64,000 bases of DNA, from the NCBI GenBank assembly GCA_934254585.1, contig CAKQLF010000006.1, forward strand, positions 2,839 to 66,838. Direction: 5' to 3'. The notes beneath the pieces were generated by a model, which was not told the origin of the DNA, did no database searches, and saw only the letters and a list, made by a program, of their open reading frames with translations. This document shows, piece by piece, positions 6,232-64,000 of this stretch. The translations under genes and the position numbers were made by a program. The stretch's first letter is position 1. Every line of letters starts with the position of its first letter. The DNA is from an uncultured Alphaproteobacteria bacterium. Lineage in GTDB: Bacteria > Pseudomonadota > Alphaproteobacteria > RF32 > CAG-239.

Positions 6232-6243
6232 ATATTATTCAAA

Positions 6244-6274
6244 GCCTCACTGCATAGTGGGGCTTTTTGCTTTT
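6244..6274 (+). terminator. Rho-independent terminator, a near-identical copy of the 4743 element
   Basis: GCCTCACTGCATAGTGGGGC followed by TTTTTGCTTTT. Confidence 0.7.
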
Positions 6275-6283
6275 AATTTTTTG

Positions 6284-6454
6284 TTGATTTATTAAGAAGA
6301 GTTTGCTAAGGTTTGGGTATTGAATAATTCACCTGTTTTATGAGGAAAGAAAGATGAAAAATAAGCAATCAAAAGGTCTCTCTCTCTCTCTGCAAATCCT
6401 AACTGTCTGATTAAAGGCATATTTTCTGCCACTACAGACGTTTTTGCAAGTTTT
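6284..6454 (+). promoter_or_regulatory. Pilin-family 5' cassette, copy 1: a degenerate promoter (TTGATT-17-TAAGGT), GAGGAAAG RBS plus ATG, (CT)7, and a hairpin/T-run
   Basis: About 85% identical to the cassettes at 33321..33497 and 50365..50545. The -10 hexamer is TAAGGT rather than the TGcTATAAT seen in the other copies. Confidence 0.6.
6378..6391 (+). repeat. (CT)7 dinucleotide tract inside the cassette mini-ORF
   Basis: ctctctctctctct counted directly. The same position holds (CT)8 in copy 2 and (CT)7 in copy 3. Confidence 0.9.
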
Positions 6455-6796
6455 TTGAAGAATTTTAGTTGTAGAGAAACTACTCACTCACACTTCTTTA
6501 ATGTCATTAACGGGCTTGACCCGTTAATCTTGTCGCGACACACATTTTCTTCACTATTCTCAATCATTCGCGGGCACCTCTTTAGCGTCATTCGCTGGCA
6601 CAGACCAGCGAATCTAGATTGCCGGATCAGACTGTGCGTCACGTCCGGCAATGACAATAAGGTGGAGCATGTCGCGTTCGGCAATGACAGTAGATTGGGA
6701 CGATGGTTAAGAGCTGTTTGCAATTTAATAAATACCCCTCACTCGGCACTGTCGTGCCACTCTCTCCCGCACGGGGCGAGAGAGTATGGTCGTTCG

Positions 6797-7381
6797 ATGA
6801 TAGAAATGCTCGGAGTATTAGCTATAGTGGGTGTCCTTTCCGTCGGTGGTATCGCCGGCTATTCTAAGGCGATGGAAAAGTGGAGAATTAATAAGCTGAT
6901 GGAAGAATACAGTTATATGATACAAGGAATTTTAGGCCACTTAACTGAATTTCAAAAATTACCTCGCAATACCGGCCTCGTTGACGTTGGTTTAGCGATG
7001 AATTTTATCCCGTCAAATTGGAAAAAAATAAATCCATTACTCGCTTATGACACTTTCGGAAATGTGGTTAAACCTTATGCCAGAGATAAGCGCGTTGTCA
7101 TTGACTTTTATTTGGGAGGCTTTTCAGACGGACAAAAATCTAAAGGGTTTTCGCCCAGGATATGCGCCGCCATAATGAAAGATCTGGTCAAACCTTTACA
7201 TTCATCTTTAACCTACGCTTGGATATTTCGTGGTGGATTTGTTGTAACCGACCACTTTCGAGGCGACACACGTTGCACCTCCAATGTTACTTGTTTAAGA
7301 GACATCACTCCAGATGACATTAACCGAGTCTGCAACTTGTGTGACGGGGAAAGACAATGTTCCATTACAATTGAATTTTAA
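6797..7381 (+). CDS. Type IV pilin-like protein, copy 1. Start unresolved: 6797 is the only in-frame ATG and the frame is open from 6365
   Basis: GRSMIEMLGVLAIVGVLSVGGIAGYSKAM aligns with the prepilin N-terminal motif G-FTLIELMIVVAIIGILAA, with E at +5 and AIIG conserved. The Cys-rich C-terminus resembles a pilin D-region. It is a paralog of 33875, 50648 and 63150. The copy-2/4 GTG start position reads GAG here, so no equivalent start exists. Confidence 0.6.
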   Translation: MIEMLGVLAIVGVLSVGGIAGYSKAMEKWRINKLMEEYSYMIQGILGHLTEFQKLPRNTGLVDVGLAMNFIPSNWKKINPLLAYDTFGNVVKPYARDKRVVIDFYLGGFSDGQKSKGFSPRICAAIMKDLVKPLHSSLTYAWIFRGGFVVTDHFRGDTRCTSNVTCLRDITPDDINRVCNLCDGERQCSITIEF

Positions 7382-8200: not shown

Positions 8201-9316
8201 CTACATAGCCCGAGAATCATCTTTTCTATAAATCGCACGTTTTCGCAGATTATTGGATTTTTTTGTTTTCTCGGCACTTTTTATCACTTCCATATTATTG
8301 CTGACGATTTTATCATTCATTCTTCCCTTAACCTGCTCCAGTGTCTGAGGTTTTAAGGATTTTATATGGACAGTTTTTTTGGACTTGCTGATTTTATTGC
8401 TCAGCCAACCCATAGCGGATTCAATTTTGGCAACTATCGGCATTACCGCGCCTCCAACCACAGCTCCGCCTATTCCGCCGGCAACAAAACCAACAGGACC
8501 GGCGGTTAATCCGCCATAAGCCGCACCCAACACGCCCAAAACTGTGGCTCCGGCTTTCATACCCGCTTTTATATCTTCTTTAGAGTTTGCCACAACCCTT
8601 TCAAAATTGTTTTTATTTTCCTTTTCTTTTGTTTTCTCTTTTATTTTATCTAATAATTTTTTTTCATTCTTTTTCGGCTTGCGGATTTTATTGCTCAGCC
8701 AACCCATAGCGGATTCAATTTTGGCAACTATCGGCACTACCGTGCTTCCAACCATAGCTCCGCCTATTCCGCCGGCGACAAAACCAACCGGCCCCGCGGT
8801 TAATCCGCCATAAGCCGCGCCCAACACGCCCAAAACGGCGGCTCCGGCTTTCATACCCGCTTTTATGTCTTCTTTAGAGTTTGCCACAACCTTTTCCGCC
8901 GGAGCTTTAACAACCGGCACATCTTGTTTCTTTTGTGTTTGTTGACTGCGATTTTTATTCATAATAAGCCATTCTTTAAACTTTCTGGAAACAGGATTTA
9001 TTGCTCCATCGGCATCATACCCGAATTTTTCAATAAATTTATCTCCATTTTTAGCCACGTCCAACAATATATCTTTTGGCAGATTTTTACGATTTTCCGC
9101 ACTCATAACACTTTGCATATAAGTCAAAGCCTGACTTTTTAATTTTTCAATTGCTCTATCAGACTTAGCCAAGTGTTTCGTTTTACTTTGTAAATATTCC
9201 AAAAGTTCAAAATAATCAGTCATTGAACGTTCGTTATAGCCGGCTCGAAGGAGCTTGGCAAATTTATTTTTGTCATCTTCAGAATATTCTATTTTTCCAG
9301 GATTATTATCAGACAT
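8201..9316 (-). CDS. Hypothetical protein with a duplicated glycine-zipper membrane module
   Basis: 371 aa. A block of about 98 aa (VANSKEDIKAGMKAGA..LGVLGAAYGGLTAGPVGFVAGGIGGA..PIVAKIESAMGWLSNKI) occurs twice. GxxxG-rich hydrophobic segments are present. The N-terminal domain has no known homology. Confidence 0.6.
   Translation of the reverse strand: MSDNNPGKIEYSEDDKNKFAKLLRAGYNERSMTDYFELLEYLQSKTKHLAKSDRAIEKLKSQALTYMQSVMSAENRKNLPKDILLDVAKNGDKFIEKFGYDADGAINPVSRKFKEWLIMNKNRSQQTQKKQDVPVVKAPAEKVVANSKEDIKAGMKAGAAVLGVLGAAYGGLTAGPVGFVAGGIGGAMVGSTVVPIVAKIESAMGWLSNKIRKPKKNEKKLLDKIKEKTKEKENKNNFERVVANSKEDIKAGMKAGATVLGVLGAAYGGLTAGPVGFVAGGIGGAVVGGAVMPIVAKIESAMGWLSNKISKSKKTVHIKSLKPQTLEQVKGRMNDKIVSNNMEVIKSAEKTKKSNNLRKRAIYRKDDSRAM
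8390..8891 (-). repeat. In-frame tandem duplication: two units of about 208 bp with a 294-bp period (98 codons)
   Basis: Unit 1 at 8390..8597 and unit 2 at 8684..8891 are about 95% identical at the DNA level. Confidence 0.85.
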
Positions 9317-9401
9317 TAGCGGCTCCTTATAAAATTTTATTCATCTATGTTATGATAATACTTGATTATAAATATTTTGTCAATATTTTTACAAAAAACA
9401 T

Positions 9402-9442
9402 AAAAAAATAAATCAAATGAATTTGTTAATGTGATTCATTTG
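9402..9442 (-). terminator. Intrinsic terminator for galE: CAAATGAAT-N11-ATTCATTTG with a T-run on the minus strand
   Basis: 9-bp inverted repeat at 9414..9442. Read on the minus strand it is followed by TTTATTTTTTT. It lies directly downstream of the galE stop at 9469. Confidence 0.5.
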
Positions 9443-9468
9443 ATTTATAAAAGTCTTTGGTCAATTTT

Positions 9469-10437
9469 TTAATATCGCTTATTCAACTCCCAATTCCACG
9501 CGGTTTTGATAATATCTTTTATATCCAGATATTTTGGTTGCCAGCCTAAAATTGCTTTAGCTTTGGTATTATCAGCATATAATCTTGCCGGATCACCTGC
9601 TCGACGCGCGGCATATTCCGTAGGACATTTTTTACCGCTGACGGCTTCGGCCGCTGCTATAATTTCCTTTACAGAAGTTCCGACTCCTGTTCCTAAATTA
9701 ATGCAACCGCTATAAGCCTCAAGTTTTTCAACCGCCAAACGATGCGCCTGAGCCAAATCTTCAACGTGAATATAGTCACGAATGCAAGTGCCGTCAGGAG
9801 TGTCATAGTCACTGCCAAATATTTTAATATTTTCGCGTTCACCTTTTATAGCCTGCAACACCAAAGGAATTATATGTGTTTCCGGATTGTGACTTTCGCC
9901 GATTTTGCCATCTGCCGAACATCCGGCAGCATTAAAATAGCGCAAGGCTATGTGCCGCAATCCATACGCCCGTTCATAGTCGGCAAAAATTTGTTCAATC
10001 ATCAGCTTGGTGCGTCCATACGGATTAATCGGATTTTGCGAATGCATTTCGTCAATCGGTGTATATTTCGGCTCACCATAAGTGGCGCAAGTGCTCGAAA
10101 ACACAATATTTTTAACATTGTGTTTGAGCATTGTATGCAACAAATTGATAGTTCCGATTACATTGTTGTAATAATATTTTTCCGGATTATTCACACTTTC
10201 ACCAACATAAGCAAAAGCGGCAAAATGAATAACAGCATCTACATTGTTGTTTTTAAATAACTCATCAAGAGAATACGGATTAAGCAAATCGGCATAAACA
10301 AATTTTGCCCGTTTGTCCACGGCTTCTTTATGGCCATAAATCAAATTGTCGGCCACCAGAACCTCATACCCCTTATCCAACAGATGTCTTACCGTATGCG
10401 AACCAATGTATCCCGCGCCACCCATAACTAAAATCAT
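9469..10437 (-). CDS. galE: UDP-glucose 4-epimerase
   Basis: 322 aa. N-terminal Rossmann motif MILVMGGAGYIGSH and a YxxxK region. Overall GalE-like. Confidence 0.88.
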   Translation of the reverse strand: MILVMGGAGYIGSHTVRHLLDKGYEVLVADNLIYGHKEAVDKRAKFVYADLLNPYSLDELFKNNNVDAVIHFAAFAYVGESVNNPEKYYYNNVIGTINLLHTMLKHNVKNIVFSSTCATYGEPKYTPIDEMHSQNPINPYGRTKLMIEQIFADYERAYGLRHIALRYFNAAGCSADGKIGESHNPETHIIPLVLQAIKGERENIKIFGSDYDTPDGTCIRDYIHVEDLAQAHRLAVEKLEAYSGCINLGTGVGTSVKEIIAAAEAVSGKKCPTEYAARRAGDPARLYADNTKAKAILGWQPKYLDIKDIIKTAWNWELNKRY

Positions 10438-10454
10438 TTACACTCTCCAATCGT

Positions 10455-11417
10455 TTACTTATTTTTGAACAAACTTATTTGCGTTTTGAAATAAGATATT
10501 GTTTTATCTAAACCTTGACTGATTTCAACTTTTGGCGACCAACCAAGTTTTTCTTTAGCCAATGTAATATCCGGACGCCGCTGAGTCGGATCATCTGACG
10601 GCAAATCTTTGTAAACAACCTTAGATGTTCCGCCGATTTTGCTCACCACCATTTCAGCCAACTCTTTTATAGTAAATTCCTTAGGGTTGCCGGTATTAAT
10701 CGGTCCGGTAAATCCTTTAGGCGAATTCATCATTCTTATCATCACTTCAATTAAATCATCGACATAACAAAACGAGCGAGTTTGCGAACCATCGCCATAA
10801 ATTGTGATGTCTTGCCCTGAAAGTGCCTGACAAATAAAGTTTGAAACAACGCGTCCGTCATTTGGATCCATATTCGGGCCGTAAGTATTAAAAATGCGAA
10901 TAACTTTGATATCTACGCCTTCGTGCCGCCAATAATCAAAGAATAAACTTTCAGCACAGCGTTTTCCCTCATCATAGCAAGCTCGAACTCCATTAGGATT
11001 TACGTTACCGCGATAGCTTTCAACCTGAGGGTGAACCAAAGGTTCTCCATAAACTTCCGAAGTTGAGGCTTGCAAAACTCTGGCGCAATGTTTTTTGGCC
11101 AATTCCAGAACATTTATTGCCCCATACACACAGGTTTTGGTGGTTTTTATGGAATAACTTCCTTGATAAGCCGGCGGCGATGCCGGACAAGCCAAATTGT
11201 ATATTTGGTTAATTTCTTGATTATCAAATACTAAGGGAGAGCACACATCTTGTTCAACAAACATAAAATTGGGGTTATCCCTGATGCTTTCAACATTACT
11301 TAATCTGCCGGTATAGTTATTATCTAAACAGATAACTCTATTACCCTCTTTAATTAGCCGTATACATAAATTAGAACCTAAAAAACCGGTACCTCCGGTT
11401 ACTAATACGGTATTCAT
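10455..11417 (-). CDS. UDP-glucuronate decarboxylase / NAD-dependent sugar dehydratase family (UXS-like)
   Basis: The track ORF extends to 11513. It was trimmed to the ATG at 11417 ([17 protein letters not shown]) with GGAAAGG upstream. Short-chain dehydrogenase/reductase (SDR) epimerase/dehydratase fold. Confidence 0.8.
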
Positions 11418-11941
11418 TTTAAACCTTTCCAAATTTAATAATAGACTGTTTAATATTATTAAGATATGCCACACATTCTTTTGATATTCAAGATTATTCA
11501 AAATAATATTCAATGTTTTTGATTAAAAAATAATACCTTATCTGACAATTAGTTCTGGTAAACTTGAAAAATATTTCTCAAAGCATAAATTAAAAGTGTT
11601 CAAAACGAACCGGTGATTGTTTTTAAGCAATTAAATTCTAAGCCGTTTCTTTTGAATTTCGAGTTCAACTTTAGAAAGTAAAATAATTTAAGCAATTAAA
11701 TACTTTTACTATGCAAAGGCGAACACGAAGCACCTTATAATTGATGTATGTTAAAAGTATTTGATTGTTAACATTGTGTTTTCAACAACCTTTTACAAAT
11801 TCAAATAAGGTTTATATTAGAGCCGAGGAAGGTAAAGGTCGTTTCCTTTGCCTTCCTTGGTTTTAAGGTATGATTTTTATAATAAAAAAAATATACCCTG
11901 CCATATAGTTGACAAGGTACATTTTTTTGAAAAACCGTAAA

Positions 11942-13603
11942 TTATTTCCGACGTAAGAACGATGGAATATCCAGTTCGTCACCCGACAATTCCGGTGTTT
12001 CATTTTCATCGGAAGTAAATTTTTCCATTTCATCAGAGTTGTTTTCTGTTTCGTCTTTATTTTTTTTACGCGCGCGAATACCCATAACACGTTCGATAAA
12101 TGTAGGTTTTACATCATCACTGCCATCATCTTCCAACGGTAAAGTTTCATTTTCCACCGGTTTAAAATCTTTAAACACATCGGTATCATACTCTTTAAAC
12201 AAAACAGGTTCTTCGGATTCATTTACACTTTGAATTGAAGTGCGGCTTGAAAAGGAATCCGCGTCTTTCGGCGCAATAGAATTAAATTCAATATCGCTGT
12301 TGTCTGCGTCATCAGCCTTGTTGGCCGAACTGTTCATAATTGCGCTAAACAATGCAGAAGCCTGCGGAACTTCAGGTAATTCGTCAGATTTATCTAATGA
12401 TGCAAAATCTTTATCTAAATTTTCATCAGCTTCCGTTGTTTCTTCACTGATTGTTTCAGTAATCAAATCCGGTTCCGATGCAGCTATTTCATCTTCATTA
12501 ACATCAAGCGAAACCGGTTCGTTTTCGACAGCATCATTCATTTCTATTGTCGGCACAAAAGCGGAATCATCATAACTTTGGTCAATTAGAGAAGGTTCTT
12601 TGGTTTTTGGCAAAACTTCCGGCTGAGGTTTGCCGTCGTTAATTCCCGTAACCACAATGGAAACACGAATTTTTCCGGCCAGACTTTCATCATAGCTTGA
12701 ACCGAAAATAATATTGGCATTATCATCAACTTCTTCTTTAATGATGTTTGCCGCCGCATCAATTTCCATAAGCGTAATATCATCGCCGCCGGTGATGTTG
12801 ATTAGCACCCCTTTGGCACCGTGCATAGTACAGTCATCTAACAACGGATTTGACAAAGCTTGCTTAGCGGCCTCTTCGGCTCTTTTTTCACCTTCGGCTT
12901 CGCCTGTTCCCATTATGGCTTTACCTTTATCCTGCATAATGTTTTTAACATCGGCAAAATCCAAGTTTATAAGCCCCGGCATCATCATTAAATCGGTGAT
13001 TGAACGTACACCCGAATAAAGCACATTATCAGCCAACAAAAAAGCATCGGCCAAAGTTGTGTTTTTATCGGCAATACGGAATAAGTTTTGGTTAGGGATA
13101 ACAATAATACTGTCAACTTCACTGGTGAAATTAGCCAACGCGCTTTCTGCCGTTTCCATACGTTTACGTCCCTCAAAAGAGAACGGCTTTGTAACCACGC
13201 CAACGGTTAAAATACCTTTTTCTTTGGCAATATGAGCCACAACGGGAGCCGCACCCGAACCGGTACCGCCACCCATTCCGGCCGTGATAAACACCATATT
13301 AACTCCCTCAAGCTCGCGAGCAATTTCTTCTTTAGCTTCTTCGGCGGCAATTTTACCGATTTCCGGACGTGCACCGGCTCCGAGTCCTTGCGTAATTTCC
13401 AGACCCAACTGAATTTTACGACTGGCAGAAGAGTGAGCCAAAGCCTGAGCATCGGTGTTAGCCACAACAAAATCGACGCCCTCTAAATTTTTGGCAATCA
13501 TATTATTAACGGCATTTCCGCCGCCACCGCCAACACCAATAACGGCAATACGTGGTTTTAAATGTGATACTGTGGTATCGGCAACACCCAATTTAATTGA
13601 CAT
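11942..13603 (-). CDS. ftsZ: Cell division protein FtsZ
   Basis: GGGTGSG tubulin signature and [16 protein letters not shown]. Long acidic C-terminal linker ending in DIPSFLRRK. The start was set to the ATG at 13603 with GGGAGA 9 nt upstream; the track TTG at 13618 lies inside that RBS. Confidence 0.95.
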
Positions 13604-13682
13604 CAATTTTTCTCCCAATTAGAAAATTTCACTTATATTAGGTATAAAATAACGGAAATAGATTAAGTTTTTCTTACTATTT

Positions 13683-14921
13683 TTAAGAATTTTGGCGTAT
13701 CCAATTAAAAATTTTAGATAATTTTCCGCCCTCTCCTATCGGACGATTGACAATTTTCTTCGGTTTGCGCTCCATATTTGTGGTAGCCAAATACAAAAGT
13801 CCGAGAGCTGTAGAAAAAGTAGGATTATTTATAATTTCCGGTATCCCCTGAATATTTCGTGGTCCGCCCAAACGCACTTGCTTATCCAAAATAACCGAGG
13901 CCACATCACGAATCCCCGGAAGTTGACTACAGCCTCCGGTTAGCACAACACGATGATTTTGTCTGTTCTGCAAGCCTTGCTGCGCCAATTTACGGGCCAC
14001 CATTTCAAAAATTTCTTCAACCCGAGGGGCAATAATTTTTATTAAATCCGAACGATGCATTTGCCGAATAGAACTATCATCTTCCTCACCCAAAGGATAA
14101 ACATTTATACTCTCATATTCATCGTGACTCACCAAAAAGGCGCAACCGTGACGATTTTTCAAATCTTCGGCGTGGGCAAATGACGTGGTCAACCCTTGCG
14201 TTATGTCTTTAGTAATATTTATTCCGCCGACAGGCAAGGTGGAAAAGGCTATCGGAACTCCGTTTTTGAAAGTGGCAATACTGGTAGTTCCGCCGCCGAT
14301 ATCTATAATCGTTGCTCCATATTCGCGTTCATCTTCAACCAAGCAAGCCATTCCCGAGGCATAGGCAGACAACACTTTATTTTCTATATCCAAATGAGCG
14401 GCCTCAACCACCGACGACAGATTCTTATATAAAACGTGCGGATACATTCCCAAAAGAATTCCGGCTGACAATTCTTCACCATAAATATTCATCGGGTCTT
14501 TCAAGTCTTCGCCGCCGTCAATTTTATACCCCGTCGGCAGGCAATGAATCAGTTCATTATTTTCAACATTAACCTTGCTTAAAACCCGTTCTCTGACTTT
14601 TATAATATCAACTTCACCGATAGGACGATTTTTTTTCAAGGCAATAGAGGCACTGCGTAAACGACTGCTTGTTTTATCACCGGAAACATTAAGAATCACA
14701 CTATCAATGCGTTCTCCAGCCATTTGTTCTGCCGCTTCAACCGCATTGCAAACAGACATAGTAGCTTCATTAATATCGGTTATCACTCCGTTTTTAATGC
14801 CTTTTGAGGCATTATAGCCATAGCTGACAATATTAATTTTTTTATCTCTGCCGATATGGGCTATCAGGCAGCAAACTTTAGAAGATCCAATATCCAACGC
14901 GGCAATAGTGGAACGATTCAC
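13683..14921 (-). CDS. ftsA: Cell division protein FtsA
   Basis: 412 aa. Actin-like ATPase motifs (ALDIGSSKV, DIGGGTT). Adjacent to ftsZ. Confidence 0.95.
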   Translation of the reverse strand: MNRSTIAALDIGSSKVCCLIAHIGRDKKINIVSYGYNASKGIKNGVITDINEATMSVCNAVEAAEQMAGERIDSVILNVSGDKTSSRLRSASIALKKNRPIGEVDIIKVRERVLSKVNVENNELIHCLPTGYKIDGGEDLKDPMNIYGEELSAGILLGMYPHVLYKNLSSVVEAAHLDIENKVLSAYASGMACLVEDEREYGATIIDIGGGTTSIATFKNGVPIAFSTLPVGGINITKDITQGLTTSFAHAEDLKNRHGCAFLVSHDEYESINVYPLGEEDDSSIRQMHRSDLIKIIAPRVEEIFEMVARKLAQQGLQNRQNHRVVLTGGCSQLPGIRDVASVILDKQVRLGGPRNIQGIPEIINNPTFSTALGLLYLATTNMERKPKKIVNRPIGEGGKLSKIFNWIRQNS

Positions 14922-14956
14922 GGTTAAAATTCCCCAACTTTTCTATTTATTCACAC

Positions 14957-15772
14957 TCAATCGCTAATATCTTTATTGCTAATTTTAACGATTACCTTAT
15001 TTTTTAATCTTAAATCAATGAAAGTTAATTTACGTTTAAGAATACCGCGAGTTTTATCTAATTTAACTAATTTTTTCCACGCTTCATCGACATCTTGCTC
15101 CGGCAACTTAACCGTTATGCCATTAAGCACATCGTCAAAAATTAAGTTCCAACGGCGTTTTGAAATAAAATTAGCCACCTTGACCCGTGAAAATAAATCA
15201 CCATCTTTTTCAATTATTTTAAGCAAAGCATTAATATGTTCCGGAGCTTCTTCACCGACAATTTGCAAAATATTTTTCTGCGGAACATATTCGGTTTCAA
15301 TGATTTTTCCATCTTCGTCTATCGGATAAAATTCATTTTGAAATTGCCATATAGATTTAACCGTCTTTTCTTTAATGCTGATATGTATAATATTTGGAAA
15401 ATATCGACGGCTGACACTAACTTCCTTAACCCACGGCAAAGACTTAACTCTGTCGCGTATTTCAGACAAATTGATATTCAGAATATTCTCACCGCGCTGC
15501 AGTCCGATAACTCGCAGCACATCTTCTTTAGCCGTCTTACCGCGTCCCTCCAATGTAACATCGTCAAGCCCCCACCCTGCAGTGGCGGTTTTATTATACA
15601 GTTCAACCAACAGCGAATCTATGTGTTTGCTGACCAAATTATGCCTAACCGTGATAACACCGAAAGTTAAAAGCCAAATGCCGCCAATCAGAATAAAATT
15701 CCCTAACAGGCGATATGGCCACAAAACAGGGGCGTATATTTTATTATCAATCGTTCCCATTTTTACGTCCAA
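14957..15772 (-). CDS. ftsQ: Cell division protein FtsQ
   Basis: 271 aa. N-terminal TM helix followed by a POTRA-like region. Positioned between murB and ftsA. Confidence 0.8.
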   Translation of the reverse strand: MDVKMGTIDNKIYAPVLWPYRLLGNFILIGGIWLLTFGVITVRHNLVSKHIDSLLVELYNKTATAGWGLDDVTLEGRGKTAKEDVLRVIGLQRGENILNINLSEIRDRVKSLPWVKEVSVSRRYFPNIIHISIKEKTVKSIWQFQNEFYPIDEDGKIIETEYVPQKNILQIVGEEAPEHINALLKIIEKDGDLFSRVKVANFISKRRWNLIFDDVLNGITVKLPEQDVDEAWKKLVKLDKTRGILKRKLTFIDLRLKNKVIVKISNKDISD

Positions 15773-16658
15773 TTATTTTAACTTCCCAATCCAACGCTAC
15801 ACCGGTTTGCTTTTTAACCAACCGACGAACTTCTTCTCCCAGATTTTCCAAATCGGCGGCACTTGCAGTTCCGTCATTAACCATAAAATTGCAATGCACA
15901 TCTGACAACGACGCTCCGCCTATTTTTAGCTCATTTCCGCCGCTTTGCTTTATCAATTTCCAAGCCGGCGCATCAGGAGTATTTTTAAATGTTGAACCGG
16001 CGGTGCGAACTCCTTGCGGCTGACGTTCTTTTCGATATAAGAAATTATCGTTTATAATTTTTTCGATTTGCGCCGCCGGAGTTTTTTTGGTTTTTAACGA
16101 CAATTCCAAAACAATCCAATCTTCAGGAAAATCGCTGTTTCGATATGAGAAATTAAAATCCGCCGGTAAAACCTCAAAAATATCACCCTTGCTGTTCATA
16201 ACTTTGGCTTTTAGCAAAACCTGCGCCAAATCAGAGCCGAAACATCCGGCATTAGAGCGAACCAAACCGCCTATACTCCCCGGAATGGAACAGATAAATT
16301 CCAATCCGCCAAGTTCATTTTCCAACAGAATATTTTTCAAAGCAAAATTTTTAAATCCGCCGCCAATATTCAAAACTTCATTTTCTATTTTGTACTCAGC
16401 AAAAGCGGAAGAGCCTAATTTTATCACCGCGCCCGCTATTCCACCATCACGAACAAGTAAATTAGAGCCGCCGCCCAAAATAAAAACCGGTAAATTTTCA
16501 GGTTTTTGTTTTAGAAAATTTTGTAAATCTTTTTCATCTTTCGGCAAAAACAAGACATCAGCCGGCCCGCCGACATTCAGCCACACATATTTTTTCAGCG
16601 GTTCGTTAAATTTGTATTCGCCTCTGACTTGAGGTAAATTTTGCTTATCTGTAACCAT
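15747..16658 (-). CDS. murB: UDP-N-acetylenolpyruvoylglucosamine reductase
   Basis: 303 aa. FAD-binding motifs (GGGSNLL, VGGPADV). The start shares a 1-nt overlap with the ftsW stop. Confidence 0.88.
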   Translation of the reverse strand: MVTDKQNLPQVRGEYKFNEPLKKYVWLNVGGPADVLFLPKDEKDLQNFLKQKPENLPVFILGGGSNLLVRDGGIAGAVIKLGSSAFAEYKIENEVLNIGGGFKNFALKNILLENELGGLEFICSIPGSIGGLVRSNAGCFGSDLAQVLLKAKVMNSKGDIFEVLPADFNFSYRNSDFPEDWIVLELSLKTKKTPAAQIEKIINDNFLYRKERQPQGVRTAGSTFKNTPDAPAWKLIKQSGGNELKIGGASLSDVHCNFMVNDGTASAADLENLGEEVRRLVKKQTGVALDWEVKIIGRKNGND

Positions 16659-17788
16659 TAGAACATATCCTTATCCTCAGAAGCCGTATTTTTGCGCGTT
16701 ATGGCCAACAACATACCAACTTCAATAGCCGTCCCCAACAATGACGAACCTCCATAAGAAATAAACGGAAGTGTCATACCTTTTGTCGGAATAATATGCA
16801 ACGAGGACGCCATATTTACAAAAGCCTGCAATCCTAAAGAAGCGGCCAAACCCACTTCGGCATACATCACAAACAAATTACTTTCTTTAATTGCCAGTTT
16901 CAGAGAGCGAATGACAATTATCGAAAATAAAATGATAATCACCAAGCACAACCACACTCCGTATTCTTCACCGGCAACGGCAAAAACAAAGTCGGTGTGC
17001 GCGTCGGGAATAGTCAACTTTACAGTTCCCTCTCCCGGGCCTTTTCCCACCAAATTGCCATTCTGAAAAGCTTCCATTGCCCTATTGATTTGATAACTTG
17101 TTTCATCACTGCCATATAAAAACTGATCTACTCTGGCGCGAAAGTGAGGATAGGTAAAATATAAAACAAACAAAGACATTATACCGCCGGCAATTCCGAC
17201 TCCGACAACCATCCACGGCAATCCGGCCAAAAACAACTGCAAACCGAAAACAGAGGTAATCAGAGCCGACATTCCGATGTCGGGCTGACAAAGCAAAACA
17301 CCCAAAATCAGCAAATATGCTCCGATTGAAATCCACATTCCGGGGAAATAATCATATTTTTTACCACAATCCAATAGCCAAGCAGTAAGAACAATAAAAA
17401 TCGGTTTCATCAATTCCGATGACTGCAAGGAAAACCCTAAAATATGCAGCCAACGACGAGCACCTTTGGTTTCAAAACCAAAAAACAAGGTCATAATCAG
17501 CAACATAAAAAGCACGACAAAACCAATTATTGAGATGCGGCGGATAGTTTTCAGGCTAAACAAAGACAAGCCAAGCATCACTCCCACAGAAAGCACCACA
17601 AATTTTACTTGTTTTCGCACCAAGGCAAAGTCATCAAGATTTAATTTTCGCGACACGGCAGGACTGGCTGTCACGTCCAAAATAACCCCAATAATCAACA
17701 ACGCCATAGACACAAAAAGCGTAACTTTATCAACAGTCCACAGCCATTTTACAATAGCGTTATGACTTTGCCGCGAAAAATTAACCAT
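16658..17788 (-). CDS. ftsW: Peptidoglycan glycosyltransferase FtsW (SEDS family)
   Basis: 376 aa polytopic membrane protein. SEDS motifs (PDAHTDFVFAV..GEEYG..IPTKGMTLPFISYGGSS). Confidence 0.88.
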   Translation of the reverse strand: MVNFSRQSHNAIVKWLWTVDKVTLFVSMALLIIGVILDVTASPAVSRKLNLDDFALVRKQVKFVVLSVGVMLGLSLFSLKTIRRISIIGFVVLFMLLIMTLFFGFETKGARRWLHILGFSLQSSELMKPIFIVLTAWLLDCGKKYDYFPGMWISIGAYLLILGVLLCQPDIGMSALITSVFGLQLFLAGLPWMVVGVGIAGGIMSLFVLYFTYPHFRARVDQFLYGSDETSYQINRAMEAFQNGNLVGKGPGEGTVKLTIPDAHTDFVFAVAGEEYGVWLCLVIIILFSIIVIRSLKLAIKESNLFVMYAEVGLAASLGLQAFVNMASSLHIIPTKGMTLPFISYGGSSLLGTAIEVGMLLAITRKNTASEDKDMF

Positions 17789-17799
17789 TATCCCTCACC

Positions 17800-18843
17800 T
17801 TATAAAAATGCCAAAACGCCAAATGCCGCCAAAAACAGAGCCGCCAACCAAAAGCTCAACACAACTTTTTTTTCTGACCATCCCAACTGTTCAAAATGAT
17901 GATGCAGCGGAGCCATTTTAAAGAAGCGTTTTCCGGTCTTTTTGAAATATACAACTTGAATCATCACCGAAACGGTTTCCGTAACAAAAACACCGCCGAC
18001 AATTGCCAATAAAATTTCGTGTTTAGTCATAACGGCAATCGCACCTAAAATTGCCCCCAAAGCCAAAGAACCGGTATCCCCCATAAAAACTTTTGCTTTA
18101 GGCTTGTTGAAATACAAAAATCCCAAACAAGAACCAATTAAGGCGGCGCACACTATTGCAATTTCGCCGCACCGAGGTATAAAAAACATATTATAATCAA
18201 CGGCATTGGCAATTCCGCAATAATATGCAACCACCATAAACACCGTAAAAGAAATAATCAACAACCCTGAGGCCAAGCCGTCTAATCCATCACTTAAATT
18301 AACAGCATTTGAAGTTCCGGAAATAACCACAACGGCAAAAGGAATATACAGCCACGATAAATTAAGACAAAACTCTTTGGCATAAGGGAAAAACAACGTA
18401 GTATTCAAATCTTTCGGTGTTGCCGCCGTAATAATACTAGCTGCAACCAAGGCCGTTAAAAACTGCAGAAACAATTTCATTCTGGCCGTCATAGCATTTG
18501 AATTTTGACGTTTTACTTTCCAATAATCATCAACAAAACCCGTCGCGCCATACATTATCAATATGAGCAAACTGACCCATACAAAATGATATTTGATATT
18601 AGCACACAAAACTATGGAGAGAATCGAGGTAAAAAGTATTAATAATCCACCCATTGTCGGAGTGCCTTTTTTAGTTTTTAAATGTGACTGAGGGCCATCA
18701 GAACGAATTGGCTGTCCGGTTTTTTGATGTTTATGCAGCAAGTTTATAAGCGGCTGTCCCAACAACAAGCTCAATATTAAAGACAAAGCAAAAGCCAATT
18801 CGGCACGCAACGCAACAGACCAATCCGTGATTAATGTAAGCAT
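17800..18843 (-). CDS. mraY: Phospho-N-acetylmuramoyl-pentapeptide transferase
   Basis: 347 aa. Motifs NAVNLSDGLDGLASG, GDTGSLALG and HHHFE. Confidence 0.93.
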   Translation of the reverse strand: MLTLITDWSVALRAELAFALSLILSLLLGQPLINLLHKHQKTGQPIRSDGPQSHLKTKKGTPTMGGLLILFTSILSIVLCANIKYHFVWVSLLILIMYGATGFVDDYWKVKRQNSNAMTARMKLFLQFLTALVAASIITAATPKDLNTTLFFPYAKEFCLNLSWLYIPFAVVVISGTSNAVNLSDGLDGLASGLLIISFTVFMVVAYYCGIANAVDYNMFFIPRCGEIAIVCAALIGSCLGFLYFNKPKAKVFMGDTGSLALGAILGAIAVMTKHEILLAIVGGVFVTETVSVMIQVVYFKKTGKRFFKMAPLHHHFEQLGWSEKKVVLSFWLAALFLAAFGVLAFL

Positions 18844-33320: not shown

Positions 33321-33497
33321 TTGATTTATTAAAAAGTATTTGCTATAATCATGGTGTTTAATAATTAACTATTTTTATGAGGAAAGAAAGATGAAAAATA
33401 AGCTTAGCAAAGGTCTCTCTCTCTCTCTCTGCAAATCCTAAATGTCTGATTAAAGGCATATTTTCTGCCGCTACAGACGTTTTTGCAAGTTTTTTCA
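33321..33497 (+). promoter_or_regulatory. Pilin-family 5' cassette, copy 2
   Basis: TTGATT at 33321-33326, a 17-nt spacer, then the extended -10 TGcTATAAT at 33341-33349. GAGGAAAG RBS with ATG at 33391. (CT)8 at 33415-33430. GTCTG..GGCA..UGCC..CAGAC hairpin followed by GTTTTTGCAAGTTTTTT. Confidence 0.65.
33415..33430 (+). repeat. (CT)8 tract, one unit longer than in copies 1 and 3
   Basis: Counted directly as ctctctctctctctct. Confidence 0.9.
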
Positions 33498-33829
33498 GAA
33501 AAAATGATGTATGCGAGAATAACAAGCACAGCACGAAACTGGCAGGCGGCACAAAGCAAGCAATTCTAGCACCAGTCATTCTAAGCCCTGTGCCTAGAAT
33601 CTTGTTGCAACAAGGTACTAACCTAGTCAATAAATTTGCCTTATTATTACATAAGTGTCGGTTCGCACAAGATTCTCGGGACAAGCCCGAGAATGGCGGT
33701 AGCTGGAGGTGTTGGCTTATTATTTGTTGCTCGTTTTTTAATCACCACTCACCCGACACTACCATGTCGACCGATAAGCCATCAAAGGGATTGGGTGTCG
33801 TGCGTCAATACGCCGCACTTTTGGAACGA

Positions 33830-33849
33830 CGTGTACAGAGTAGTACACG
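33830..33849 (+). promoter_or_regulatory. Perfect 7-bp inverted repeat CGTGTAC-N6-GTACACG, about 25 nt upstream of the GTG start
   Basis: The same inverted repeat occurs twice upstream of copy 4 (63775..63795 and 63889..63908). Confidence 0.5.
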
Positions 33850-33874
33850 AGCGCAAAAATTCCTAGCAGATGGC

Positions 33875-34567
33875 GTGCAGTACGGGAGAAGTATGATTGA
33901 AATGTTAGGCGTTCTGGCCATCATCGGTGTTTTGAGCGTTGCCGGAATCGCCGGTTATTCCAAGGCGATGACTAAGTGGAAAATCAACAAATCCATTGAA
34001 CAAATAGAGCAAATTACCCACAACACATTCACAACTTTTGCCAACCAAAAGGACTTTAGGTCTATATATTCTTCTGACGAAGATGGTATAAACCTTTTTA
34101 AATCTTTAGGCATAATCTCCGAGGATATGATTGTTGATGGTCAGCTAAAAAATTCATTTGGCGGGGATTTAAAACTGTATGCTGGCACATTTAATAGTAG
34201 TTATCTAACTCATTCAGGCGAAAAATATTTTTCACTTGAATACTGGAATATACCACGCGAAGCCTGTATGGCTTTGGGTTCCCTAGATTGGGCTAAAGGT
34301 TCTGATACTGTAATAGGTGTAGGAATCTCACCTAATCGTGATAATGTAATGATAGATCCTACTGAGTGTTGGCTTCTTAATTATCTCACCCTGGATTATC
34401 GCGACGGAGGCTGGTTAGTGGTTTGCAATAATGGTGTTCCAGATGAAGAGTATGGAGAAACGGAAGCTGATAGGATACCTCTGCCAATTCCGCTTGATAT
34501 TGTGGCCGAACATTGTAAATGCAAAGATAACGATTGTTATTTTGGCGTGGCCTTCACCGATAAATAA
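33875..34567 (+). CDS. Type IV pilin-like protein, copy 2. GTG start giving leader MQYG; the frame is open back to 33395
   Basis: QYGRSMIEMLGVLAIIGVLSVAGIAGYSKAM prepilin-type N-terminal helix. C-terminal Cys pairs (CKCKDNDC). Its 5' region is nearly identical to that of copy 4. Confidence 0.65.
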   Translation: MQYGRSMIEMLGVLAIIGVLSVAGIAGYSKAMTKWKINKSIEQIEQITHNTFTTFANQKDFRSIYSSDEDGINLFKSLGIISEDMIVDGQLKNSFGGDLKLYAGTFNSSYLTHSGEKYFSLEYWNIPREACMALGSLDWAKGSDTVIGVGISPNRDNVMIDPTECWLLNYLTLDYRDGGWLVVCNNGVPDEEYGETEADRIPLPIPLDIVAEHCKCKDNDCYFGVAFTDK

Positions 34568-50364: not shown

Positions 50365-50545
50365 TTGATTTGTTAAGAAGTGCTTGCTATAATCAAGGTG
50401 TTTAATAGTTCACCTAATTTTATGAGGAAAGAAAGATGAAAAATAAGCAATCAAAAGGTCTCTCTCTCTCTCTGCAAATCCTAAATGTCTGATTAAAGGC
50501 ACATTTTCTGCTGCTACAGACGTTTTTACGAGTTTTTACAGAAAA
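50365..50545 (+). promoter_or_regulatory. Pilin-family 5' cassette, copy 3
   Basis: TTGATT at 50365-50370, a 17-nt spacer, then TGcTATAAT at 50385-50393. RBS with ATG at 50436. (CT)7 at 50460-50473. Hairpin followed by GTTTTTACGAGTTTTTAC. Confidence 0.65.
50460..50473 (+). repeat. (CT)7 tract
   Basis: Counted directly. Confidence 0.9.
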
Positions 50546-50647
50546 AATGATATATTAAAAAACCATCAACTCAGCGACGATTATACAGACTCACCCCATG
50601 CGGAAGATGTCACTGGATTGCTTCGCTATGCTCGCAATGACAGTAAG

Positions 50648-51253
50648 GTGCAGTGTGGACGAAGTATGATAGAAATGCTTGGCGTTCTGGCCATAATCGG
50701 CGTTCTGTCTGTCGGCGGTATTGCCGGTTATTCCAAGGCAATGATGAAATTCAAAACCAATCAAATTGCCGACCAAGTATCCACTATCGTAACTAATATC
50801 AAAACACTATACGCTCAGCAGAAAAACTACGAGGGGCTGAATAATGCTTCTGCTGTATCAATGGGAATTATACCGGACAAATTAGGCTCTGATTTAACCC
50901 ATCCATTTGGCGGAAATGTAGGCGTTTATTCAGATTATGGTATAAACACATTCTTTATTGAATATAAAGAGTTACCAAAAGAGGCTTGTATAAGTTTGGC
51001 AACTAATGACTGGGGCGCAAGTATTTCATCCGGTTTAGTTGCTATGGCTGTTAGCACTTATAGTACTTACATTCCTCCAATCTTAAACAAAATGTATTTA
51101 GGTTGCCAGGGGGAAGAACAATATTGGGGACGAGCTTATATAGCTTGCCCTGGTGGTTCGGTTCTGTCTGTTCCGATGAGTCCGGAAAAAGCCTCCGCCG
51201 CTTGTGCTTGTGATAAGGGAAATACTTGTTCGGTTGGTTGGATGTATCACTAA
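50648..51253 (+). CDS. Type IV pilin-like protein, copy 3. GTG start giving leader MQCG; an alternative TTG at 50618; the frame is open back to 50447
   Basis: CGRSMIEMLGVLAIIGVLSVGGIAGYSKAM. The alpha1 extension QVSTIVTNIKTLYAQQKNYEGL is shared with copy 4. C-terminal Cys cluster. Confidence 0.65.
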   Translation: MQCGRSMIEMLGVLAIIGVLSVGGIAGYSKAMMKFKTNQIADQVSTIVTNIKTLYAQQKNYEGLNNASAVSMGIIPDKLGSDLTHPFGGNVGVYSDYGINTFFIEYKELPKEACISLATNDWGASISSGLVAMAVSTYSTYIPPILNKMYLGCQGEEQYWGRAYIACPGGSVLSVPMSPEKASAACACDKGNTCSVGWMYH

Positions 51254-52685: not shown

Positions 52686-52762
52686 GCGCTCGTAGCTTAA
52701 TTGGATAGAGCATCTGACTACGGATCAGAAGGTTGTGAGTTCGAGTCCCGCCGAGCGCGCCA
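52686..52762 (+). tRNA. tRNA-Arg, anticodon ACG, with encoded CCA
   Basis: Manual fold: acceptor 1-7 with 67-73 (GCGCTCG/CGAGCGC); D-arm; anticodon stem TCTGA/TCAGA with loop CTACGGA; T-loop TTCGAGT. The T-stem GTGAG/CCCGC contains one A-C mismatch. Confidence 0.85.
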
Positions 52763-63116: not shown

Positions 63117-63151
63117 CGTAAAAGGCGGAAGTAAAATAACTTCCGCTTTTT
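63117..63151. terminator. Bidirectional terminator: GCGGAAG-taaaataa-CTTCCGC plus T5
   Basis: Lies between the convergent ugd and pilin copy 4. Confidence 0.6.
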
Positions 63152-63749
63152 ATCTGAAGAAAAGTCCCATACAAACGGTGCCATCTTGTTGAGCTCTATT
63201 GCAGTATTTGTTGGCCATATCAAAACTTATGATATTATTTCCGCCTTCAGCACAAACAAAATAAGCACCCTTTATTTCTATTTTTCCGGAACAACCTTGT
63301 CCGGTTTGCTTTATTCCTGCAGCTCCATTCAAAAAATTATGAGCGAGAACAATAGATATGCCGTACAAACCATTAGCATTGCCACCCCACTGTTGGGTGG
63401 TTAAAGCCAAGCATTGTCTTGCAGTCAGTCCGCAAATGCGTAAACCGAATAAGGCTCCATCTTCAGAAGCTCTTAATCGTACATCGGTATTTTTCCCCAA
63501 TGGCAAATTCCAATTGTTTTCCGGATACACACCGGCTTGTAATGCGGTTGAATCAGACAAACCTTCATACGATTTTTGCTGCATATAAAGCGTTTGCACA
63601 TTAGTGGCTATTTGTGTCAGATAATCAATAGTTTTATCTATTTTCCACTTTTCCATCGCTTTTGAATAGCCGGAGATTCCGCCGACGGAGAGAACAGCGA
63701 TTATGGCGAGAACGCCGAGCATTTCTATCATACTTCTCCCATACTGCAC
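63150..63749 (-). CDS. Type IV pilin-like protein, copy 4. GTG start at 63749 giving leader MQYG; the frame stays open upstream to beyond the window end
   Basis: QYGRSMIEMLGVLAIIAVLSVGGISGYSKAM. The alpha1 extension is shared with copy 3. C-terminal Cys residues are present. Its 5' cassette would lie beyond position 64000. Confidence 0.65.
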   Translation of the reverse strand: MQYGRSMIEMLGVLAIIAVLSVGGISGYSKAMEKWKIDKTIDYLTQIATNVQTLYMQQKSYEGLSDSTALQAGVYPENNWNLPLGKNTDVRLRASEDGALFGLRICGLTARQCLALTTQQWGGNANGLYGISIVLAHNFLNGAAGIKQTGQGCSGKIEIKGAYFVCAEGGNNIISFDMANKYCNRAQQDGTVCMGLFFR

Positions 63750-63774
63750 GCCATCTGCTAGGAATTTTCTCGCT

Positions 63775-63908
63775 CGTGTACTTTTTTTGTACACGTCGCT
63801 TAAAAATCCCGTCGCATCTGACGCACATTGCGGAAGAAGATTTCTAATATGTTTTGTCTGTTTGGTTACTGCTCGCGCTTTTCTCACTCGTGTACTACTC
63901 TGTACACG
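63775..63908 (-). promoter_or_regulatory. Two copies of the inverted repeat CGTGTAC-N6/7-GTACACG upstream of pilin copy 4
   Basis: 63775..63795 has an A7 spacer and 63889..63908 has spacer agagta. It is the same operator-like inverted repeat as at 33830..33849. Confidence 0.5.
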
Positions 63909-64000
63909 TCGTTCTAAAAGTGCGGCGTATTGACGCACGACATCCAATCCCTTGAATGTGATTGTATTTTTCTTTCTATAATCAATCACCCTCTCAACAT

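Follow-up and report, generated by a model that had tools for sequence, protein, structure and literature searches.

Repeat-driven phase variation is textbook biology in the pathogens Neisseria, Helicobacter, and Haemophilus. In Helicobacter pylori, the genes hopH (oipA), sabA, sabB, hopZ, and babB carry 5′ CT dinucleotide repeats; the Neisseria opa genes, a dispersed family whose members have their own promoters, are mostly OFF, and show mosaic alleles, carry CTCTT repeats in the signal-peptide coding region. One report describes CT repeats in the 5′ coding region as the switch of H. pylori oipA (PMC10564699), and an overview of repeats is available (PMC5320596). Here we analyze a 64-kb stretch of contig CAKQLF010000006.1 (the window, meaning this whole stretch) from an uncultured human-gut alphaproteobacterium, in which three copies of a 5′ cassette, each with a promoter region, a Shine-Dalgarno (SD) sequence, an ATG, and a (CT)n tract, precede genes for pilin-like proteins. 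Sequence comparisons make it very probable that this cassette serves to express and switch a type IVb pilin unit consisting of one gene, which would undergo slipped-strand translational phase variation.

Like the CT-repeat outer membrane protein (OMP) genes of H. pylori, these units would place (CT)n just past the start codon of a surface protein and switch ON and OFF by slipped-strand mispairing. Unlike them, the cargo is a type IVb pilin rather than a β-barrel OMP, the tract precedes a leader of 60 to 250 amino acids (aa) rather than a Sec signal peptide, dozens of paralogs share one cassette, and the host is an uncultured gut alphaproteobacterium. With opa they have in common a dispersed family, a promoter for each copy, a pyrimidine repeat in the leader-coding region, copies that are mostly OFF, concerted 5′ ends, and mosaic alleles; however, the repeat is a dinucleotide and not a pentamer, the loci number at least 43 versus ∼11, and the products are pilins, not Opa adhesins. 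Neisseria pilE/pilS and the poly(G) tract of pilC likewise combine many pilin-like copies with repeat tracts that vary type IV pilus components, but pilS copies have no promoter or 5′ end and act by gene conversion into pilE, whereas every copy here is a complete unit with its own repeat. The mechanism is known; the gene family, its cargo, the scale of at least 43 loci, and the gut alphaproteobacterial host are new. Searches of full-text literature yielded analogues only, with no description of this pilin family or of such switching in these gut Alphaproteobacteria, and to our knowledge a set of at least 43 loci would be the largest repeat-switched pilin family.

Cassette copies in the window and beyond

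The three cassettes, numbered copies 1, 2, and 3, were found where the original prediction had placed them, at 6284 to 6454, 33321 to 33497, and 50365 to 50545. They had been described as ∼85 to 90% identical; the high similarity holds, with a measured pairwise identity of 84 to 86% in a cassette alignment. The flanks are unrelated: pairwise alignment of 100 nucleotides (nt) upstream and 150 nt downstream gave only ∼50% identity. The 25-mer GAGGAAAGAAAGATGAAAAATAAGC is invariant, occurring exactly three times in the window versus never in 100 shuffles. The features, in order of position, are as follows.

6284–6454, + strand: copy 1 cassette; −35 TTGATT at 6284–6289, degenerate −10, SD at 6342–6353, ATG at 6354
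6378–6391, + strand: copy 1 tract, (CT)7; OFF stop TGA at 6408–6410
6392–7381, + strand: copy 1 leader (6392–6790) and mature pilin-like domain (6791–7381)
6506–6528, 6590–6613, and 6618–6652: 9-bp palindromes in the copy 1 leader
33321–33349, + strand: copy 2 promoter; −35 TTGATT at 33321–33326, 17-nt spacer, extended −10 TGcTATAAT at 33341–33349
33379–33393, + strand: copy 2 SD GAGGAAAGAAAG and ATG (33391–33393), invariant in the three window copies
33391–33441, + strand: copy 2 predicted OFF-phase product, 16 codons plus TAA, previously described as a mini-open reading frame (mini-ORF)
33415–33430, + strand: copy 2 tract, (CT)8, out of phase; n = 6 or 9 would be in phase by frame simulation
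33431–33886, + strand: long prepilin leader of copy 2, an open frame of 152 post-tract codons ending in Gly(−1)
33443–33497, + strand: proposed hairpin and T-run, within the copy 2 leader
33446–33456, + strand: CTGATTAAAGG in copy 2, read as L-I-K-G when ON and holding the stops TGA and TAA in the OFF frames
33672–33694, + strand: perfect palindrome ATTCTCGGG/CCCGAGAAT in the copy 2 leader
33887–34567, + strand: copy 2 mature pilin-like domain (RSMIEMLGVLAIIGVLSV...), stop included; weak N_methyl/PilS matches, but related through its family to bundlin-type pilins
50365–50545, + strand: copy 3 cassette; promoter at 50365–50393, SD at 50424–50435, ATG at 50436
50460–50473, + strand: copy 3 tract, (CT)7; OFF stop TGA at 50490–50492
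50474–51253, + strand: copy 3 leader (50474–50659) and mature type IVb pilin (50660–51253)
63150–64000, − strand: fourth family member (...FLADGVQYG/RSMIEMLGVLAIIAVLSV..., the slash marking the predicted cleavage site); its leader leaves the window end

The proposed promoter, TTGATT separated by 17 nt from TGcTATAAT, was called by a promoter scan in both copies in which it had been described as intact (copies 2 and 3), copy 2 scoring 10/12 with the TG extension. In copy 1, the −10 is degenerate (TAAGGT, not TATAAT) and the scan makes no call; given this element, transcription of copy 1 may be weaker. Its cassette region is 99.7 to 100% identical in the orthologous contigs L126 and L127. The strong SD and ATG are present and invariant in all three window copies, and each proposed mini-ORF does contain a CT tract: (CT)7, (CT)8, and (CT)7 in copies 1, 2, and 3, respectively. 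A window scan found no other long dinucleotide tract, and the 64 kb hold no homopolymer of ≥9 nt.

Searching one genome per species with a 23-mer around the SD and ATG returned at least 110 stretches, and at least 43 cassette copies lie in a single metagenome-assembled genome (MAG) of an uncultured gut alphaproteobacterium (CAKQRZ). Promoter, SD, and ATG are kept in every copy family-wide, the promoter as TTGACT...TGGTATAGAAT positioned 36 to 38 nt 5′ of the ATG; because the 23-mer was the search pattern, its invariance among the matches is by construction. The proposed tie to pilin-like genes bears up, in that nearly every copy with enough downstream sequence precedes a pilin gene. The cassette is a family-specific 5′ module, as proposed, but not a noncoding leader, since the frame that follows the tract is open in 80 of 80 copies.

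Frame logic of the CT tract

We simulated translation from each cassette ATG in all three frames while varying tract length. The tract starts 24 nt past the SD-linked ATG, within the 5′ coding region, and its repeat number switches between a full-length ORF and an early stop. With n = 6 or 9, the ATG is joined to ORFs of 341, 390, and 271 aa in copies 1, 2, and 3 (range, 271 to 392 aa); at n = 7 or 8, and so in each of the three window copies, translation ends after 16 to 18 codons (13 to 20 across the family). In each window copy, one frame is open from the end of the tract to the G/RSMIEMLGVLAIIGVLSVGGIAGYSKAM... pilin-like domain and its stop, and the proposed hairpin and T-run sit in this in-phase coding sequence (ANPKCLIKGIFSAATDVFASFF...). 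Since the ATG leads into the full prepilin when n = 3, 6, 9, or 12, the mini-ORF, which is present as described (18, 16, and 18 codons), is not a separate regulatory ORF but the OFF phase of the pilin gene's own start. All three complete window genes are OFF in the assembly (n = 7, 8, and 7), each one unit away from ON.

The family-wide evidence comes from the 80 copies with enough downstream sequence to reach the cleavage motif. Between the tract and G/RSMIEML, the leader frame has 0 stops in 9,827 codons, compared to 547 and 785 in the other two frames; the post-tract leaders are 52 to 218 codons long. Within the last 30 leader codons, no internal SD-linked in-frame start is present in 68 of the 80 copies. 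The remaining 12 have an SD-like in-frame start near the cleavage site (ATG in three of those), and we rejected such a start as a general mechanism because only 12 of 80 copies have one. A strictly open frame, together with the lack of an alternative start, argues that translation enters at the cassette ATG, which requires n to be divisible by 3. In 111 of 111 unique copies, each OFF frame reaches a stop no more than 6 codons from the tract; the best-conserved stretch, CTGATTAAAGG, is exact in 74 of these 111 and ∼90 to 99% conserved per column.

Tract-length polymorphism and ON alleles

The same chromosomal sites were fetched from other samples by means of exact neighboring proteins. The flanks of copy 3 (n = 7) and locus L115 (n = 8), 300 nt on the upstream and 400 nt on the downstream side, are 100% identical, as are those of L114 (n = 7, OFF) and L001 (n = 3, ON) over the same distances; at the locus orthologous to copy 2, n is 7 or 8 among samples. 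Tract length is thus polymorphic between otherwise identical alleles. L001, the ON ortholog of copy 3 with (CT)3, has a gene call of 271 aa, P0001, which begins with MKNKLSKGLSANPKCLIKG... and continues through the pilin.

Other ON-phase forms were found with an in-phase N-terminus profile, which recovered database proteins containing GLSLSANP (n = 6), GLSLSLSANP (n = 9), and GLSLSLSLSANP (n = 12), mostly from short contigs. A metagenome scan, whose pattern was exactly (CT)6 and which gives no ON:OFF ratio for those samples, yielded six loci in two samples. Among them, L138, L140, L141, and L143 encode complete 268- to 343-aa prepilins from the cassette ATG; L142 is open through the pilin domain, its ATG missing since the contig begins inside the gene. 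Several loci of ERZ1034949 have n = 6. Intact ON alleles (n = 3 and n = 6) and OFF alleles therefore both occur in nature.

Pilin identity

Copy 3 matches Pfam Bundlin PF05307 with 47.8 bits (E = 2.4e-12; cutoff, 22.3) and PilS PF08805 with 43.6 bits (E = 3.9e-11; cutoff, 22), as well as the solved bundlin structure of BfpA, 1zwt, in the PDB (E = 1e-6). It is the only one of the three complete window copies to exceed a curated Pfam threshold: copy 2 reaches 14.3 bits, below the cutoff, and copy 1 has no Bundlin/PilS match in Pfam. Bundlin/PilS domains are present in other alleles of the copy 1 and copy 2 loci. All four window genes, including the incomplete fourth member, carry the class III signal G/RSMIEMLGVLAIIGVLSVGGIAGY, with Gly(−1), Glu(+5), and a hydrophobic α-1 helix; N_methyl matches are weak, at 12 to 14 bits.

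These proteins resemble BfpA, TcpA, and PilS of R64/Salmonella in their Bundlin/PilS domain, Gly(−1), Glu(+5), α-1 helix, and Cys-rich C terminus, but differ from type IVb major pilins in that position +1 is Arg, leaders are 60 to 250 aa long, and copies 1 and 2 fall below Pfam thresholds. Known type IVb leaders are roughly 15 to 30 aa; the short, basic leader of this length (∼15 to 30 aa) is not found here. Database relatives number >7,700, a few of them named "type 4 pilus major pilin," and most have a leader of <20 aa (for example, MNYENQRG/RSMIEML). One more distant relative, the protein P0077, has SLSLSLS within a 29-aa leader, and so the same switch may also exist outside the long-leader lineage.

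A proposed contingency-locus mechanism

With the frame logic, open leader frame, tract polymorphism between otherwise identical alleles, and intact ON alleles as its observed basis, we propose the following mechanism. A σ70-type promoter would drive the mRNA, and the strong SD-ATG would be the true start of the pilin precursor, with (CT)n occupying codons 9 onward. Slipped-strand mispairing during replication would add or remove entire CT units. For any n divisible by 3, the product would read Met-Lys-Asn-Lys-x-x-Lys-Gly-(Leu-Ser)n/3, followed by a long leader ending in Gly; the RSMIEML... after this Gly would be the class III signal and α-1 helix of a bundlin/PilS-like pilin, and prepilin peptidase would remove the leader. 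When n is 7 or 8, ribosomes would stop 0 to 6 codons past the tract at a conserved TGA or TAA, making a 13- to 20-aa peptide and no pilin. We infer promoter activity, the rate of switching within a clone, leader cleavage, and pilus assembly; at the sequence level, the cassette has every contingency-locus property that we tested for.

Since there are dozens of units per genome, individual cells would display different pilin subsets. If this is true, a commensal lineage frequent in gut metagenomes, Hadza ones among them, gives dozens of loci to stochastic pilus diversification, which would point to strong fluctuating selection on the surface, for example, by host immunoglobulin A (IgA), pilus-specific phages, or adhesion niches. 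On this reading, gene callers systematically misannotate these genes as truncated ORFs from internal starts, as in P0002, which is called from MIEML.

OFF excess, conservation, and alternative explanations

Several observations weigh against phase variation of this kind. In consensus assemblies, 79 of 80 pilin-motif copies are out of phase (n = 7 in 53 and n = 8 in 25), an OFF excess far from the one-third ON expected under neutral drift. This bias needs either selection against majority-ON or a length distribution centered between ON lengths; n = 7 and n = 8 are each one repeat unit from an ON length. Consensus assemblies show the majority tract length only, and either an ON minority at each locus or selection against any single pilin becoming the majority would fit. 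Moreover, several ON-phase alleles on long contigs are otherwise inactivated: L086 (n = 9), the sole in-phase long-tract copy among the genome-scan matches listed, is truncated; an IS110 element interrupts L133; the leader frame of L134/L135 is closed by a nonsense codon four codons short of the cleavage site; and L136 shows decay. L133 to L136 came from the in-phase N-terminus search, which is biased to ON proteins, and the three checked on longer contigs were all disrupted; unlike these, the n = 3 allele L001 and the metagenomic n = 6 alleles are intact. The translated leader, at 60 to 250 aa, is far longer than that of typical relatives (<20 aa), and its cleavage is a prediction. Neither pilus assembly genes nor a prepilin peptidase was found in the 64-kb window. 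Lastly, conservation of the 60 nt that follow the tract shows no codon periodicity (variability of 0.165, 0.18, and 0.146 at codon positions 1, 2, and 3), so that a constraint other than protein sequence acts on them. The near-universal OFF state in consensus sequences and the palindrome-rich leader of 60 to 250 aa (see below) are concrete puzzles.

Codon-level constraint on these 60 nt was ruled out by the lack of 3-periodicity, which argues that their conservation is not at the protein level and that homogenization within genomes is the better explanation: identity across the cassette and post-tract region is 0.87 to 0.94 within a MAG versus 0.74 between MAGs. Such likeness within genomes marks concerted evolution of the 5′ module, which other contingency gene families also show.

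The OFF excess and this concerted evolution would also be expected if the out-of-phase copies were a silent reservoir, either donors like Neisseria pilS or dying paralogs. That different pilin alleles occupy the same site behind identical upstream flanks, and that some copies are clearly decayed, fits such a reservoir as well. We nevertheless consider it improbable: each copy has its own promoter, SD, and ATG, which pilS-type copies lack; the absence of stops from 9,827 leader codons requires selection on translation from the upstream ATG; and every OFF copy is exactly one unit from ON, with intact ON alleles known. Among decayed switches, we noted L056 (6354 to 6400), where a C-to-T change breaks the tract into (CT)3 TT (CT)3 and would lock it out of phase, and L101 (5235), where the tract is wholly lost.

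In the original prediction, the sequence after the tract was read as a hairpin plus T-run. If this were the terminator of a leader-peptide attenuator, a 16- to 18-codon upstream ORF would control it and the pilin would be made from an internal start, an arrangement to which a strong SD-ATG before a short ORF, OFF-frame stops at the 5′ arm of the hairpin, and nucleotide-level rather than codon-level conservation after the tract would all be suited. Two window copies also have a stem-loop more stable than shuffled sequence (z = −2.9 and −2.1; −0.7 in the third). Across 92 unique copies, however, outer-stem pairs are standard in only 12 to 36, conservation of the inner GGCA/TGCC stem is mainly of sequence, no consensus structure emerges from RNAalifold, and fold z-scores average −0.72. 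No terminator was called inside any of the three cassettes (the sole match in the copy 1 interval, at 6241 to 6266, precedes the cassette and is assigned to the gene before it), the T-run is set apart from the stem, and no Rfam family matches the cassette. On pair conservation, RNAalifold, z-scores, terminator scans, and Rfam, a terminator or attenuator was rejected. A noncoding leader, moreover, does not need the frame that is open in all 80 copies, the independent pilin start is missing from 68 of 80, and full-length fusions exist at n = 3 and n = 6; the attenuator is largely refuted by the open frame, and we regard it as very improbable.

Hardly credible, finally, is a recoding mechanism in which transcriptional slippage on the CT tract or ribosomal frameshifting gives low expression of n = 7 and n = 8 alleles, OFF really being "low": it would explain why nearly all copies have these lengths, and one predicted fold pairs the CU tract with the purine-rich SD, but the two lengths need opposite frame corrections, the conserved OFF-frame stops ≤6 codons from the tract leave a very short window, the SD-tract fold is no better than shuffles (z = −0.21), and most documented cases of slippage involve homopolymers. 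SD sequestration by the CU tract, seen in one minimum-free-energy fold only, was rejected on the same z-score.

Long leaders and palindromes

In the ON phase, leaders would be 73 to 167 aa in the window copies and ∼60 to 250 aa in the family. They are mosaics of shared modules such as KGLDVVRQYAALLERRVQ, ALLLHKC, and FFKYPSP..., and perfect 9-bp palindromes of the ATTCTnGGn-N5-nCCnAGAAT type abound in them; these palindromes lie in frame and occur also in L002 to L111. Hairpins with 8-bp stems number 2.0/kb in leaders versus 0.12/kb in the mature pilin part; those with 9-bp stems number 1.64/kb in leaders versus 0.14/kb in the other ∼820 kb fetched (11.5-fold; 863 kb in total). We therefore rejected the palindromes as a genome-wide repetitive extragenic palindromic (REP) family: they concentrate in leaders, and sequence outside leaders has almost none of the ATTCT type. 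Rickettsia palindromic elements are in-frame insertions of palindromic repeats in coding genes. As with these elements and REPs, short perfect palindromes here lie in frame in a translated region, and an IS110 element interrupts one leader; unlike them, the palindromes are essentially confined to pilin leaders rather than genome-wide.

Several other leader features were noted. The module GGATTGCTTCGCTATGCTCGCAATGACAG (...GLLRYARNDS...; 50618 to 50645) recurs just 5′ of the Gly(−1) codon in many copies, with variants LLRVARND, LLRRCAPRND, and LLRCARND, and contains a small ATTGC/GCAAT palindrome. In L133 (2715 to 3647; ENA ERZ27286922, k141_647608), an IS110-family transposase lies inside a pilin leader, and the pilin downstream of this insertion sequence has its own SD and a short leader, MYKNFEHG/RSMIEML. 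Three ON-phase proteins, P0121, P0131, and P0136, end at one junction (...VINSDEKVIHREI followed by a stop). IS110 elements prefer palindromic repeats or REPs as targets, according to two papers (PMC1525189 and PMC11208160), and the shared junction fits the preference for palindromic repeats given in the first of these (PMC1525189).

The length of the leaders and their palindromes could reflect tolerated insertions, translation-coupled silencing of OFF mRNA, or recombination sites; each is possible. We are doubtful, on balance, that the long palindromic leaders of these type IVb pilins, a repertoire of at least 43 that would be switched independently, are a functional device rather than tolerated junk. 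Were they a device, hairpins or Rho acting on the untranslated leader could enforce OFF, with ribosomes melting the hairpins in ON, or the palindromes could be recombination or IS110 target sites that shuffle pilin bodies between shared 5′ cassettes.

Allele turnover and hosts

Strains compared at the same site share an identical upstream flank and cassette and differ greatly in their leaders and pilin bodies, with downstream identity of 0.56 to 0.95. At the copy 2 site (L118 to L122) and the copy 3 site (L112 to L117), alleles and leader lengths differ widely, and the upstream 300 nt are 97 to 100% identical. Identical upstream flanks combined with divergent bodies point to recombination as the means of allele replacement, its breakpoint lying within the cassette or close by. 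The downstream neighbor of L112 is gyrB, not the usual 404-aa gene.

Among the matches listed, nearly all come from a handful of MAGs of uncultured gut Alphaproteobacteria, mostly from Hadza samples. Bins labeled Bacteroidaceae, [Ruminococcus] gnavus, and Eubacteriales also carry the cassette, often at contig ends (for example, L006, L007, L015, L021, and other CAVKTH, CAVIDY, CAVEOB, CAVGVF, and CAKRRH loci); these are probably misbinned or mislabeled alphaproteobacterial contigs. Assemblies tend to break at the repeated cassette. L031, from Pseudozobellia thermophila, is the sole listed match with neither CT tract nor pilin and is a chance match to the 23-mer.

Genomic setting

The pilin genes of the window each stand alone among housekeeping genes: scoAB, tRNA-modification genes, a GNAT gene, the dcw cluster, CTP synthase, and UDP-glucose dehydrogenase. 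We examined the minus-strand operon at 8201 to 18843 as possible pilus machinery and rejected it, as it consists of the dcw/fts cluster and genes for sugar epimerases; the remaining large ORFs have housekeeping functions. The leader of the fourth family member (...KSTRARKFLADGVQYG/RSM...) resembles that of copy 2, and since it crosses the window edge, its cassette should sit just beyond base 64000. A single tRNA gene, at 52686 to 52759, is the sole Rfam match in the window.

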